A stretch of 64,000 nt of DNA from a virus. Positions 15,596 through 62,127 of this stretch are shown here, piece by piece. Made by a program: the position numbers and the translations under genes. Position 1 is the first letter of the stretch; each line of letters starts with the position of its first letter. The notes beneath the pieces were generated by a model. That model saw only the letters and a program-made list of their open reading frames with translations, was not told where the DNA came from and ran no database searches. The stretch is from positions 16,239 through 80,238 of IMG/VR virus record IMGVR_UViG_3300047678_000169; one strand, 5' to 3'.

Positions 15596-16362
15596 TCCTT
15601 TGTGGTGATATTCAAATCAACAGGAGAAAAATGGCTTACACCATGTTTGACATAAGGATATAAACCAAAACGGGAAGAAAGCCAAGGAAAAACTACTTCT
15701 CCATACCATCTATTTTTGATGCGTGTCTTAAAATAAGAATCTGGAGCTTTTTTTAGAAACCAAGACACAACGCTACCTTTGATAACATAAAAAGTCTCAA
15801 CGTAAGACCAATTAACATGAGTATATTTTAGTTCGTCAAAAGGTATGTTCTGAACGATTGGCATTTCTCCGTGGTCGAACTCTAAATGGTCAAGAGTCTT
15901 CCATTGAGTATGTCCGTCAGCCGATTGGCCAACCCCATAATGTCCATAGACACCGATGGAAGGATTTCTATCCAACAGTGCTTCAATTTCTGTTCTTTTG
16001 GATAGAAATTCATTGAGATAGTATTCGAATCTATCCTGACGGTCATTTACTCCACCTTTGGTATGGGCGAACCACACGTTCTTATATGGTTCCTTTGTCC
16101 TCATTCTCATTGCTTTTAAGGCAGCTTGAGTTCCAGATGCGTCTGACTCACAATATAATTCCCTCGGCACCACTGATACCACAAGATTTTGGTGTTTGGA
16201 GCTCAATATTTTGTTATAGACTTCATTGCAAGTGTCTGGATTGATTCCTACGAATACATCAGCATCGGCGAAAGTGGTTTCCAATACCTCTAACCACCTA
16301 TCAATCATCCAAGCTTTGGAAGAGTTGAAAATAGAAACGGAAAATACGACAGCAGATTTCAT
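15553..16362 (-). CDS. Glycan-locus hypothetical protein (GT-like)
   Basis: VWFAHTKG motif; context. Confidence 0.55.
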   Translation of the reverse strand: MKSAVVFSVSIFNSSKAWMIDRWLEVLETTFADADVFVGINPDTCNEVYNKILSSKHQNLVVSVVPRELYCESDASGTQAALKAMRMRTKEPYKNVWFAHTKGGVNDRQDRFEYYLNEFLSKRTEIEALLDRNPSIGVYGHYGVGQSADGHTQWKTLDHLEFDHGEMPIVQNIPFDELKYTHVNWSYVETFYVIKGSVVSWFLKKAPDSYFKTRIKNRWYGEVVFPWLSSRFGLYPYVKHGVSHFSPVDLNITTKEWEKENGLHFDILT

Positions 16363-51992: not shown

Positions 51993-52646
51993 TCAAAGAT
52001 GTTCCAATTTGGATTGAACTTTCTTAATGTCCATCTTATGAAGCTTGAAAAATGCTATCATCGAAGCTGGAGCCAAAAATGTCATGTATTGGTCAGGAAC
52101 AATTGATGTCAACTGAACCAATGCGTTCTTTAGAGCTTCATTCTGAATGAAGTTCGGTAAATTTTTGAGAAGAATGATTAGAACCATCAACACAATCGGC
52201 CAAATTCCTTTGGACATTAATGGATTGTAGCTCTTCACAATGGAACTGAATCTAGCATTGTGTATCTTCATCAATTTAACTGGAATTGATGGGTGTAAAA
52301 TCAAAATTTGCTTGAATACTTCTTGATTGAAAATTGCGACCTTCATTGGAGTTATCGAAACGATAGAAGCACTTCTTGGTGTTCCTGACAATAGCGACCC
52401 TTCTCCAATCAAATCATGAGGCTTGAGGATAATCTTGGCCGGTTTTCCAGCTTTCAATACTTGAGCCTTTCCCTCTAAAACGAGATACATTGAGTCTCCG
52501 GTGTCTCCTTCAACAATGAAGGTGACGCCAGTGGAATATTCTTTGATTTCACACAATGCCGCAACCTTTTTTAAGGTGGGATGTGGAACGTCTGAGAAAA
52601 GAAATCCTTTACTCAATTCGTCTGGAGTAGTGGTCAATTTTGGCAT
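51993..52646 (-). CDS. Cyclic-nucleotide-binding domain protein with C-terminal TM segments
   Basis: EGDTGDSMYLVLEG, GEGSLL...PRSAS phosphate-binding cassette; no HTH. Confidence 0.88.
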   Translation of the reverse strand: MPKLTTTPDELSKGFLFSDVPHPTLKKVAALCEIKEYSTGVTFIVEGDTGDSMYLVLEGKAQVLKAGKPAKIILKPHDLIGEGSLLSGTPRSASIVSITPMKVAIFNQEVFKQILILHPSIPVKLMKIHNARFSSIVKSYNPLMSKGIWPIVLMVLIILLKNLPNFIQNEALKNALVQLTSIVPDQYMTFLAPASMIAFFKLHKMDIKKVQSKLEHL

Positions 52647-53695: not shown

Positions 53696-54028
53696 CAGAG
53701 AAGCTATAGCCGATGTTCTGTCCAGAACCGAAGTCCCTGACCTTACATTTCTCTATGAGACGTAAATTTTGCCTCATTCCAAGCTTTTCGCCGGGATGCC
53801 CCTACCTTAGTATGCAAACGAGCGACTCACGCTCTCTACAATTTTTGGGTTACTGCGGATGATGTGGTATTAACGAACCGCTTGTGTCCGAGAACCATAG
53901 ACCCTCCTGATTTGGACTCAGGCACTATGGCGGTTGGATGATACAGCATTGTTCTCCCAGCTACGAGTCGAGCAGCATCGAACTTCCTCTATGGTTTTCT
54001 TTCCCACAGCGTAAGGTCGCTTACTCTG
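53696..54028 (-). ncRNA. rnpB: RNase P RNA
   Basis: GAGGAAGUUCGAUG (CR I) and ACAGAACAUCGGCUAUA (CR V) form P4; P2 GACCUUAC/GUAAGGUC; P1 CAGAG/CUCUG. Confidence 0.88.
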
Positions 54029-54215: not shown

Positions 54216-54290
54216 TGGCTGCCCCCCAGCGAATCGAACGCTGATAAACCGAGTCAAAGTCGGCGATAATAACCGTTATATGAGAGAGCA
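54216..54290 (-). tRNA. tRNA-Gln (UUG)
   Basis: CU UUG AC loop, G73-CCA. Confidence 0.85.
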
Positions 54291-55088
54291 ATGTTTCTTA
54301 ATCTTCGGAACAACGATATGGTGTTCACGGCAAATTTCTTTTAAACGATTTGCACTTACACCATACAATTTTCCCAATTTTCGTAGAGAAGTTTTTGTTA
54401 CTTCGTCGGAAAGTTTTTTGAGGGAGTCGTCGTTCCATTTAATTTTTTGATTCCGTTTTTGTAGAGGAATGTTGACAACAAGTAACCCACAGATTTTTCT
54501 CAACTGGTGTTGGGTTATTCCGTGTTTTTTCTTAATGTCACTACAAGTTAACGTTAAACAATCTTGTCTAAATTCATCGGAGTCAAACCTATCTATGTAG
54601 ACTTTGTTCAACTTTAGATTAGAAGACTTCCCAGCGTATGTCGCTGTTTGTGAATGGCAATTTGGACACAAAAAACACAAATTTTCTATACGATTGTCTC
54701 TGTGGTTTCCGTTTTTATGTTCTAGCTGTAAAACTATAAGCTTGTTTCTCCATTCCGTTGTCAGTCCACATTCACATTTATACGGAACCAAATTAAACCT
54801 CAATATTAAGTTCTTTACTGTATTTGTGTTGGTATTACTATTCTCAACAAATACACTCTTACTCGCTTCATACAACGACCATTGACGATGTGTAAACTTT
54901 TTTCCCTTGTTTGATTTCAAATGCTCGGAATTTATTTTTAAAAATTCAATTCTTCTTTTAAGCGTCTTGTTATTAGCTCCCCTCGGTGGGAGGCCACATT
55001 TAATCAATACATCGGAATAAGATTTAGATTCCAGAACTATCTTTGTAAATTCTATATCACTTGTTTCGTAAATTCTACTGGTTTTCAT
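54276..55088 (-). CDS. HNH homing endonuclease
   Basis: CECG..W..LQLEHKNGNHRDNRIENLCFLCPNCHSQT; start MKTSR after TACTTAT. Confidence 0.88.
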   Translation of the reverse strand: MKTSRIYETSDIEFTKIVLESKSYSDVLIKCGLPPRGANNKTLKRRIEFLKINSEHLKSNKGKKFTHRQWSLYEASKSVFVENSNTNTNTVKNLILRFNLVPYKCECGLTTEWRNKLIVLQLEHKNGNHRDNRIENLCFLCPNCHSQTATYAGKSSNLKLNKVYIDRFDSDEFRQDCLTLTCSDIKKKHGITQHQLRKICGLLVVNIPLQKRNQKIKWNDDSLKKLSDEVTKTSLRKLGKLYGVSANRLKEICREHHIVVPKIKKHCSLI

Positions 55089-55162
55089 ACGCTTATAAGT
55101 ATGTAACGGAAGAACCAAAACGTAAATTATTTTACGCTTCCATTACACAATCGGGGAGCGTA

Positions 55163-56044: not shown

Positions 56045-56607
56045 TGGTGGACTAGTCGGTTATCACCCGAACACGCGATTTAGCTGGATTGCATTACTGG
56101 TTAATCGCCATCGTAGCCCGTAAATAGTGGACGTTCGGGACTCGAACCCGTATCTCTCTCCTCATCTGTCTTCACATCGGAAAGCGTGTTGCCATATCTT
56201 GGCGGAAGTTGCCTCTACACCAGACGCCCATAAATTAGTGACAAATCAGGCAGAATCGAACTGCCGCCCTATTTGATTCTGCACCAGCAGAAATAGCGGA
56301 ATCGAACCGCCCGAATCCTCATCGAGAGGATGTGCTACCATTACACCATGTTTTGTCAAAGTGGTGCGTTCGGAAGGAATCGAACCTTCGCCTGCTTACG
56401 CTGGTTACGCGTCGCCCTTCCAACATGGGCCTTGATACAAGTGCTTACCGCCTTCGAAGAGCAGAGTCACGTTCAACCATTTCCGCCACAAACGCAAATT
56501 GGTGAGTTACAGGAGGATTTGGCACCTCCACGAAGTTATTCCGCCGCTAACGGCAATGCTATTACCTTCGACCCCTTAAAGGCTGCGTCTTCTTCCGCCA
56601 TACACTC
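56045..56607 (-). ncRNA. Run of five aberrant tRNA-like RNAs (56045-56119, 56126-56229, 56237-56357, 56362-56495, 56500-56607)
   Basis: Each has paired ends and a T-arm-like hairpin but a non-canonical interior. Confidence 0.6.
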
Positions 56608-57727: not shown

Positions 57728-57792
57728 TGGTGGTCAAAATAGGAGTCGAACCTAAAGGATTTCTCTTATACAAAGATTTCCGCCACTTGACC
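57728..57792 (-). ncRNA. 65-nt Leu-like mini-tRNA without an anticodon arm
   Basis: GGUCAAG/UUUGACC-A-CCA plus T arm. Confidence 0.55.
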
Positions 57793-57796
57793 AAAA

Positions 57797-57871
57797 TGGT
57801 GGCCCGAGTGGGATTTGAACCCACAACCGTTCGACTATCAATCGAGTGCTCTAACATTGAGCTATCAGGCC
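57797..57871 (-). tRNA. tRNA-Ile (GAU)
   Basis: UU GAU AG loop. Confidence 0.88.
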
Positions 57872-57881
57872 GTAAATTATT

Positions 57882-57996
57882 TGGTGGACTAGGTGGGAAT
57901 CGAACCCACGTTTTCCGCTAGCGGAAGGACATTCCCACATCCCGTAATGGTGGAATGTATCGGAATCGAACCGATTATTTCTCCATAGACTAGCCC
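57882..57996 (-). ncRNA. Twin Ala-identity mini-tRNAs with swapped acceptor strands
   Basis: Two T arms and two ACCA ends; the acceptor strands pair only across the two units, both with G3.U70. Confidence 0.7.
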
Positions 57997-58001
57997 ACAA
58001 A

Positions 58002-58151
58002 TGGAGCCGATGATGGGAGTCTAACCTAGCAGATGAATTAGCTAACTTTGTCCAACTAATCAACATGTATTTTCATTGGGAGCTACCATTCCTTTCTACG
58101 ACATTTTCTTCAACTTAGAAAGTTGATGCTCTATCCTTGAGCTACACCGGC
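58002..58151 (-). tRNA. 150-nt tRNA-Arg (UCU)-like RNA with a large variable-region domain
   Basis: Normal acceptor, D and anticodon arms; ~75-nt insert. Confidence 0.7.
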
Positions 58152-61482: not shown

Positions 61483-62127
61483 TTATACTCTTCCTTTTCT
61501 GAATCCTCTTGGGAGCGAATCGGTTTTTAGAACTAACTTGCTAACAAGTCCGTTGGTAATCCAATGTTTTCCAAACGACGGATTTTTCTTACCGTCAAAC
61601 ATTCCTTGTTTTGCATCGCTCATTTTCTTTTTTGTTTCTTCTGAATGTTCTTTTCCTTGGAATGGATTTCCGTTTATAGACTGATATAACAGACTTCTAT
61701 TTGATAGTTTTTGAGTAAATTCTATTCTAAATTGTTCGTCGGTTTTATATTTATCCCACAATTTATTCGCCGCTGCCTTACCCATTTTTGTGTAGTGTTC
61801 TTTGGAACGATTTACTTTGTTTCCATTTTTTCCAGTTGAATTGATGTAATCATACCCACCATTTCCTCCTAATTTGATGTTGTATGTGTCATCTCTGGCA
61901 ATAAATTCTTCATCAACTATGTCGGTTTCTTTTTGGTTCATTTCTTCTTCCGTATTACACTCAAAAAGCAACTCTTTGACAAAGTGTTCTTTTCCATGTT
62001 TCTCTACTGCCCGACCAAGCAAAACTCCAGAGCCAAAATACTCATCGTCTTTGTTTTCAGTTTTGTGTTTTCCGACGTAAATTTTATTGTTCAGTTTATT
62101 GGTAATTTTGTAAATCAAGTAGTGCAT
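61483..62127 (-). CDS. Seg-like GIY-YIG homing endonuclease
   Basis: YLIYKITN..IYVGKH..YFGSG, YNIKLGG, NUMOD3 HSEETKKKMS. Confidence 0.9.
   Translation of the reverse strand: MHYLIYKITNKLNNKIYVGKHKTENKDDEYFGSGVLLGRAVEKHGKEHFVKELLFECNTEEEMNQKETDIVDEEFIARDDTYNIKLGGNGGYDYINSTGKNGNKVNRSKEHYTKMGKAAANKLWDKYKTDEQFRIEFTQKLSNRSLLYQSINGNPFQGKEHSEETKKKMSDAKQGMFDGKKNPSFGKHWITNGLVSKLVLKTDSLPRGFRKGRV

Follow-up and report, generated by a model that had tools for sequence, protein, structure and literature searches.

The stretch of DNA analysed here (the window) comprises 64,000 nucleotides (nt) of the IMG/VR virus record IMGVR_UViG_3300047678_000169, positions 16,239 to 80,238, a record that is itself an 80-kilobase (kb) fragment estimated at 29% of its genome. 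Within the tRNA array of this window, following a giant tRNA by 5 nt and preceding a tRNA-Ile by 10 nt, lies a 115-nt element on the minus strand (57996-57882) that consists of two tRNA-like units, unit A (49 nt, 57996-57948) and unit B (62 nt, 57943-57882), separated by a spacer, UUAC, which at 4 nt is like the other junctions of the array. Both units have the same order of parts, a 5' acceptor strand, a linker (14 nt in A, 27 nt in B), a T arm, a 3' acceptor strand and ACCA (Table 1). The acceptor strands pair crosswise. The 5' strand of unit A pairs at 7/7 positions with the 3' strand of unit B to give the outer helix (head 1), and the 5' strand of unit B pairs at 7/7 with the 3' strand of unit A to give the inner helix (head 2). 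G3.U70, A73 and a CCA encoded in the DNA mark both crossed helices, each of which stacks on a canonical T arm.

This arrangement, two units with a 4-nt spacer and crossed 7-base-pair (bp) helices with G3.U70 and A73, had been described in an earlier note made from the letters of the window, and the sequence bears it out. So too the statement that neither unit closes its own acceptor stem, as self-closure reaches only 4/7 pairs in unit A and 5/7 in unit B. The minimum-free-energy fold of the uncut RNA forms every helix at -40 kcal/mol, and cofolding of separate 49-nt and 62-nt strands gives -40.5 kcal/mol. Neither ARAGORN nor the Rfam tRNA model (RF00005), even at E<=10, calls a tRNA over 57882-57996, while the same scans find 34-35 tRNAs and one transfer-messenger RNA (tmRNA) in the window, all on the strand of the element. 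Characteristic RF00005 traits, the 7-bp acceptor stem, the UUCRAnn T loop and the discriminator with CCA, are each present twice in the element, with each acceptor stem formed between the units. No anticodon stem-loop is found in the 14-nt and 27-nt linkers, and the element is without a D arm or anticodon arm, as the earlier note had it. Each head has the form of an acceptor/T-arm minihelix and carries the full alanine identity set (G1-C72, G2-C71, G3.U70 and A73), and there is neither an anticodon nor a reading frame. A coding interpretation of the locus, as a 71-amino-acid open reading frame (ORF) at 57851-58066, was rejected on the compensating stem changes, and the length differences that are not multiples of three, among the related copies described below.

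Among the window's own 33 tRNAs, 0.66% of non-cognate combinations of 5' and 3' strands pair at 7/7 positions, so that chance would place two crossed stems at one site with a probability of ~4e-5, or ~4e-4 given alanine-type GGG/UCC ends. The crossed layout is confirmed as real and not a product of chance.

Collections of viral, metagenome and genome contigs were scanned with patterns and the matches tested by script for strand pairing, which gave at least 12 further intact copies (L122, L055, L114, L142, L089, L087, L138, L102, L338, L352, L361 and L411), each on a separate viral or metagenome contig of an uncultured phage, for a total of at least 13 with the window copy. The family size is a lower bound, since the scans were pattern-based and biased to canonical T-loops and alanine ends. 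The window copy has the features that define the family, namely the crossed helices A5':B3' and B5':A3', G3.U70 and A73 in both of them, and a T arm beside each. In the 12 copies for which stems were tabulated (all except L411), the outer stem occurs in 8 versions and the inner stem in 12. Both helices covary at positions 4-7, with G1-C72, G2-C71, G3.U70 and A73 constant on both heads across the family. Unit A is 47-51 nt long in 11 of the 12 tabulated members (61 nt in L361) and unit B 49-62 nt. Linker A, at 12-16 nt in the same proportion of members (26 nt in L361), has a recurring (A)AUGG-like motif that is also seen in the tmRNA gene of phage DS6A and in the Rfam tmRNA alignment. The inner tail and spacer together span 6-9 nt, and all 13 tails start with AC. 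Most members form a hairpin at the position of hairpin 3 in linker B, and that of L122 (UGCUGU-AU-ACAGCA) covaries with the one in the window copy.

In an alignment of seven sequences, 98.2% of cells are paired in the crossed structure and 14 pairs have changed on both sides, a result equalled by none of 500 shuffles. Sliding the structure along the alignment lowers the pairing to 37-53% in every control, and the self-closing alternative leaves only 58-63% of cells paired in the acceptor helices. The T arm A stems are 100% paired, with changes on both sides at four of the five pairs. A covariance model built from seven copies scores the held-out copies L102, L089, L338 and L411 at 74-81 bits, compared with ~37 bits for adjacent tRNA pairs; the window copy scores 110.5 bits, but is among the seven source sequences of the model. 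From a plain MAFFT alignment RNAalifold predicted both T arms and the inner A3':B5' helix unguided; it missed the outer stem because the 5' ends are staggered. These figures cannot all be taken at face value, as the members were chosen for their crossed pairing and most patterns required GGG/UCCACCA, so that the conservation comes partly from the selection and the figures are partly circular. The features that were not selected are the A5' GGG at a fixed distance of ~25 nt, the T arm A stems, the unit lengths and the linker motifs.

On this evidence we hold it very probable that the family is a real, conserved RNA with crossed heads. That the window element is no relic but a functional RNA whose two heads are of the alanine type is supported by the crossed pairing kept through compensatory changes in 13 copies and by the alanine marks kept on both heads. 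The opposite view would make it an inert remnant, left when tmRNA-like or alanine tRNA genes recombined under the action of homing endonucleases; both HNH and GIY-YIG endonuclease genes are indeed present in the array, and L144 is a decayed copy. However, the 13 intact copies have different compensating stems in a constant geometry, the chance expectation per site is very low, and the copies are not near-identical recent transfers. Such covariation excludes the one-off relic that the earlier note had named as its refutation, and we regard inert relics of any such origin as exceedingly improbable.

Other searches marked out the limits of the family. An exact 25-mer of the inner junction gave no further copy in viral contigs, a strict pattern with both T-loops as GGTTCGAWTCC gave 45 loci with no crossed pairing, and the scan of genome contigs gave 27 loci with no crossed member. 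An identity-neutral scan gave no crossed element of another amino-acid identity among the matches listed, which is weak evidence only. BLAST searches of 50,697 GenBank phages with an 801-base region around the window element and with the L114, L142 and L411 elements returned only tRNA-arm pieces, matches in XacN1 and an Erythrobacter phage being scored as tRNA background, and no cultured carrier was found at this sensitivity. Among public runs none was listed with RNA of the element, and contigs from four runs did not reach over it in any relative. The array proteins were of no help as anchors, with no relatives found for the cyclic-nucleotide-binding protein and a 181-amino-acid protein leading to an unrelated phage without the element. 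Three further candidates were set aside: MT837072 (L299), in which a T arm is followed by a terminator-like hairpin, and L303 and L318, which are ordinary permuted tmRNAs.

The only Rfam family that spans the element, at permissive thresholds, is tmRNA (RF00023), with a global match (model 1-374) to exactly 57996-57882. Traits of its tRNA-like domain (TLD), a G3.U70 acceptor, a D-loop analogue, a T arm and ACCA, are all found in the window element, in which 69 nt replace the 326-position mRNA and pseudoknot part of the model. The mRNA-like domain, that is the resume codon, tag frame, stop and pseudoknots, is absent, and ARAGORN calls no tmRNA at the element. The permuted tmRNA model (RF04321) matches in another register at 13.9 bits.

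Of the RNAs described so far, the closest to it is the TLD-only tmRNA of mycobacteriophage DS6A, a relative that the earlier note had missed. Papers from the tmRNA Website list a 'TLD only' ssrA for this phage, and a DS6A-like TLD-only molecule strongly inhibited tmRNA in Escherichia coli, perhaps through titration of SmpB (PMC4131195; PMC11915505). The count of tmRNA sequences that lack a coding sequence (CDS) stands at 9 'standard, no CDS' and 72 'permuted, no CDS' (PMC11915505). At L300:28478-28560, the DS6A gene shows a single acceptor stem, which carries G3.U70, together with one T arm, a closed helix 2 and CAAUGG as its D-loop analogue. Both RNAs are phage-borne, with a canonical T arm, an alanine G3.U70 stem and a D-loop analogue of the AAUGG type; both lack a reading frame and pseudoknots and match the tmRNA model globally below threshold. 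In contrast, the 83-nt DS6A molecule is one-headed, with a closed helix 2 and an unencoded CCA, whereas the window RNA has another T arm and another alanine acceptor helix, which is circularly permuted and interlocked with the first.

The comparison with two-piece tmRNA made in the earlier note holds good, since the parts of the inner head follow the permuted tmRNA gene order: T arm, 3' acceptor strand, A(CCA), a short stretch and then the 5' acceptor strand. Two-piece tmRNAs occur in Alphaproteobacteria, some Betaproteobacteria, Cyanobacteria and mitochondria (PMC11915505). As with these, the predicted product of the window gene is two base-paired strands after tRNA-type processing. The two-piece tmRNAs have one acceptor helix, plus a tag frame in bacteria, whereas the window RNA has a standard-order and a permuted-order head on the same two strands, so that the two tmRNA gene orders are combined in one gene. 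Each head also resembles a synthetic alanine minihelix or microhelix in having an acceptor stem on a T arm, G3.U70 and A73-CCA; minihelices with G3.U70 reportedly suffice in vitro as substrates of alanyl-tRNA synthetase (AlaRS), as found by Francklyn and Schimmel in 1989. Those, however, are laboratory constructs of one hairpin, whereas the window helices are each built from two strands and the heads are tethered. In permuted and split tRNA genes, as in Cyanidioschyzon merolae and Nanoarchaeum, the 3' half precedes the 5' half or base pairing alone joins the two. The window RNA is similar in that its halves are reordered or joined only by pairing, with processing by tRNA enzymes predicted, but the permuted and split genes, in eukaryotes and archaea, give ordinary tRNAs with anticodons and the window RNA has no anticodon arm and two acceptor ends. 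Full-text literature searches found no description of the two-headed form, and the design appears to be undescribed. The sources of tag-less tmRNA-like RNAs known before were one phage, some organelles and a few bacteria; giant phages keep a more elaborate form, with two alanine-type heads made from two interlocked strands.

We suggest that the 115-nt gene would be transcribed as part of the tRNA array. Unit A gives head 1 its 5' acceptor strand and D-loop-like linker and head 2 its T arm and 3' acceptor strand, with unit B doing the reverse. RNase P would cut 5' of each GGG, as at the tRNAs of the array and so at 57943/57944 in the inner junction, and exonucleases would trim the 4-nt spacer; the ends at that junction would then be 5'-GGGAUGU and ...ACAUUCCACCA-3'. 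The 49-nt and 62-nt strands would then be held together by two intermolecular 7-bp acceptor helices, as in two-piece tmRNA, and we give even chances to such cleavage into two pieces in the window phage. Host AlaRS would be expected to charge the outer end, and also the inner end where CCA is present, as in the window copy, or is added. Because it has no anticodon and no message, the product would act like tmRNA, as a tag-less tRNA-like domain. By analogy with the DS6A molecule and the tag-less tmRNAs of organelles its targets would be the SmpB, EF-Tu and stalled ribosomes of the host, and it would either compete with trans-translation or effect message-free rescue without tagging. A crossed two-headed alanine RNA gene with tRNA-type processing, charging and tag-less tmRNA-like action is the best explanation overall, at a little under even odds, and we propose the action on the ribosome-rescue pathway, an argument by analogy, more tentatively.

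Several observations weigh against this proposal. The RF00023 score is 27.4 bits, below the gathering score of 47. The complete 271-kb genome G004 has the element and no full-length tmRNA, and neither the 80-kb record nor any of five further carrier records, of which one is complete, was found to contain an SmpB gene; any action through SmpB would therefore require that of the host. The inner loop, at 6-9 nt, is short, which makes RNase P access uncertain. Among the five viral-collection copies from scans in which the tail was left free, the inner tail is ACCA in L055, ACCG in L338, ACUC in L352, ACAC in L361 and ACUA in L411, so that the inner CCA is missing from four, even though the ordinary tRNAs in the arrays of three of these four carriers encode CCA in 8/8, 21/22 and 4/5 cases (the L411 array was not counted). 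A second encoded CCA end is thus common in the family and not universal, and copies that lack it would need the host CCA-adding enzyme, or their inner junction would never be opened; no gene for such an enzyme was found in the window record. The claim of two chargeable ends is accordingly weakened for the family: the alanine set is present on both heads throughout, and the inner CCA is not. There are also one-headed relatives (L325, L388, L391 and L398), which have the same outer shell and an internal hairpin like T arm A, with a plain hairpin (GUA-UGG-UAC) in place of the inner acceptor; it is short in L325, L388 and L391, and L398 has a 7-bp non-acceptor hairpin. L325 has A3-U70, and L391 has its outer stem and T arm B in common with the two-headed L142. 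In another variation, the two-headed L361 has a genuine D arm and a 5-bp helix like an anticodon stem, with the permuted head at the place of the anticodon loop.

These points bear on the main rival, a one-piece RNA in which only the outer ends are trimmed, the inner junction stays a closed loop of 6-9 nt and only the outer head is chargeable. The inner T arm and acceptor-like helix would then be a mimic, bound by a factor that reads tRNA elbows or the acceptor helices of alanine tRNAs, such as AlaRS, RNase P, SmpB or modification enzymes, and would serve as a decoy or scaffold. Missing inner CCA ends in arrays that otherwise encode CCA, the short loop, the retention of T arm A in relatives with a plain hairpin, and the uncut fold with all of its helices are consistent with it. 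It would be odd, however, for a mere hairpin to keep G1-C72, G2-C71, G3.U70, A73 and C74 invariant on the inner head while positions 4-7 covary, the inner ACCA and 4-nt spacer of the window copy resemble all other tRNA junctions of the array, and permuted tmRNA precursors are processed at similar junctions (PMC11915505). We consider the one-piece RNA rather unlikely.

The switch proposed in the earlier note fares worse. A second GGAAUGU and a 14-nt palindrome are both present in unit B, as reported there, but the GGAAUGU, which would replace G3.U70 with A-U as an on/off identity switch, is found only in the window copy and in 0/11 others, and the claim is not upheld. The function offered in that note, a donor of alanine for non-ribosomal use or a decoy for EF-Tu or RelA, is distinctly unlikely. 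Such a donor would be doubly charged and serve an aminoacyl-transferase of cell-wall, lipid or peptide synthesis; such a decoy would sequester EF-Tu, or activate or block RelA. The alanine set on both heads would suit these roles, and acceptor/T-arm minihelices suffice for AlaRS, EF-Tu and some Ala-tRNA-dependent transferases; against this, the neighbours of the element are tRNAs, with no transferase or other conserved protein gene beside it, RelA detects uncharged tRNA by way of the anticodon arm on its codon, and such an arm is absent here, and nothing favours donor or decoy roles over one related to tmRNA.

Phage tRNA arrays are countermeasures to tRNA-targeting defences, and a further possibility is that the RNA, by its likeness to tmRNA or to tRNA acceptor ends, draws off a host defence or toxin that recognises or attacks these, for example a system with SmpB-like domains or a toxin that modifies or cleaves acceptor ends. 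SmpB-like RNA-binding domains are predicted in the CoCoNuT defence systems (PMC10542128), and several mini-TLD paralogues occur in the carriers. This evidence is circumstantial, however, and no linked defence or anti-defence gene was found, so that we judge an anti-defence decoy improbable.

If both ends are charged, this RNA would be the first in nature with two ends that accept an amino acid, and would offer a handle on phage manipulation of ribosome rescue, AlaRS or EF-Tu. The small design (~110 nt) and its easily mutated marks (G.U to G-C on either head) make it tractable in vitro. It is a long shot that the RNA carries out message-free double tagging, in which two tethered Ala-heads would enter a stalled ribosome in turn, each with host SmpB, and add a template-free Ala-Ala to the nascent chain. 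If true, the 111-nt RNA would be a substitute for a tmRNA of ~400 nt, Ala-Ala being the minimal C-terminal degron common to ssrA tags and bacterial alanine tails.

Table 1. Parts of the two-headed element, related RNAs and neighbouring features. Positions without a prefix are those of the window.
Feature	Position	Strand	Remarks
A5' strand, GGGCUAG	57990-57996	-	5' side of outer acceptor helix (head 1); pairs 7/7 with 57886-57892, with G3.U70; covaries in the family
Linker A, 14 nt, UCUAUGGAGAAAUA	57976-57989	-	holds UGG/AUGG D-loop-like motif
T arm A, AUCGG-UUCGAUU-CCGAU	57959-57975	-	stacks on inner acceptor helix (head 2)
A3' strand, ACAUUCC	57952-57958	-	3' side of inner acceptor helix; pairs 7/7 with 57937-57943, with G3.U70
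Inner tail ACCA and spacer UUAC	57944-57951	-	predicted RNase P cut and 3' trimming site; 8-nt loop if uncut
B5' strand, GGGAUGU	57937-57943	-	5' side of inner acceptor helix
Linker B, 27 nt, GGGAAUGUCC, hairpin 3, AAC	57910-57936	-	hairpin 3 is UUCCGC-UA-GCGGAA, 57913-57926
T arm B, GUGGG-UUCGAUU-CCCAC	57893-57909	-	stacks on outer acceptor helix
B3' strand, CUAGUCC, and ACCA	57882-57892	-	3' side and 3' end of outer head
One-headed relative	L325:7764-7859	-	outer shell and internal hairpin like T arm A
One-headed relative	L388:8709-8807	-	as above
One-headed relative	L391:9974-10075	+	as above
One-headed relative	L398:2170-2276	+	as above
Full-length phage tmRNA	37723-38127	-	70.4 bits; long tag AKRNLAKLNVLTLLRKAKNVGAAMAVAA; 20 kb from the two-headed RNA
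Tandem of phage tmRNA and two-headed RNA	L352:5374-5882	-	tmRNA (tag GKNKVVTFRKSAKVARKASLAAA), AUUUU, two-headed RNA starting 6 nt after the tmRNA
Sub-threshold tmRNA-model match, 90-109 nt	G002:C1:33679-33768
Sub-threshold tmRNA-model match, 90-109 nt	G003:C1:11836-11939
Sub-threshold tmRNA-model matches, 90-109 nt	G006:C1:109622-109728 and 129390-129498
Candidate RNase P RNA	53702-54024	-	323-nt ORF-free gap between tRNA-Met and tRNA-Ile, within the array
Protein gene in array	54276-55118	-	HNH-like (weak)
Protein gene in array	61483-62127	-	GIY-YIG/NUMOD3 homing endonuclease
Protein gene in array	51993-52646	-	cyclic-nucleotide-binding-domain protein

Nearly all copies of the two-headed RNA sit in phage tRNA arrays, on the tRNA strand, in carrier contigs of up to 271 kb; the surroundings of the window element show no conspicuous promoter or terminator. 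Three carriers (the window, L338 and L352) also have a full tmRNA. In L352 the tmRNA and the two-headed RNA are presumably co-transcribed, and a purely inhibitory role is therefore disfavoured. Carriers hold further global matches to the tmRNA model of 76-113 nt below threshold, and those listed for G002, G003 and G006 may be additional mini genes for tRNA-like domains.

The ORF-free gap at 53702-54024 matches the model of class B bacterial RNase P RNA globally (1-365) at 42.7 bits, against a gathering score of 97, and locally with an E-value of 1.6e-10. Helices P1-P4 are present, GAGGAAGUUCG resembles CR-I and ACAGAACAUCGGCU resembles CR-V, and most of the specificity domain is absent; it may be a minimised phage RNase P RNA. 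Other genes of the window, outside the array, include those for GroEL, glycosyltransferases and a Dda-like helicase.

Several unusual tRNA-like genes were also seen. Self-closing genes that resemble alanine minihelices, ~44-62 nt long, lie directly 3' of ordinary tRNAs at L056:6724-6798 (+), where the gene reads GGGGCAG ... T arm ... CUGCUCC-ACCA, and also in L011 and L029; this one-hairpin class may be related to the two-headed family. Matches to the tRNA model with large inserts lie in the window at 58005-58151 (-) and 56365-56495 (-), the latter of 131 nt, and the insert-bearing matches include a tRNA with a UCU anticodon loop and ~86 nt in its T/variable region. Between tRNA-Ile and tRNA-Ser, at 57728-57796 (-), is a tRNA-like unit of ~69 nt (GGUCAAG ... 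T arm ... UUUGACC-ACCA) that has no recognisable D arm and is not called by ARAGORN. Finally, a tRNA with a CUA anticodon (amber-reading; labelled Pyl by ARAGORN) at L122:910-985 (+) adjoins the closest relative of the window element.
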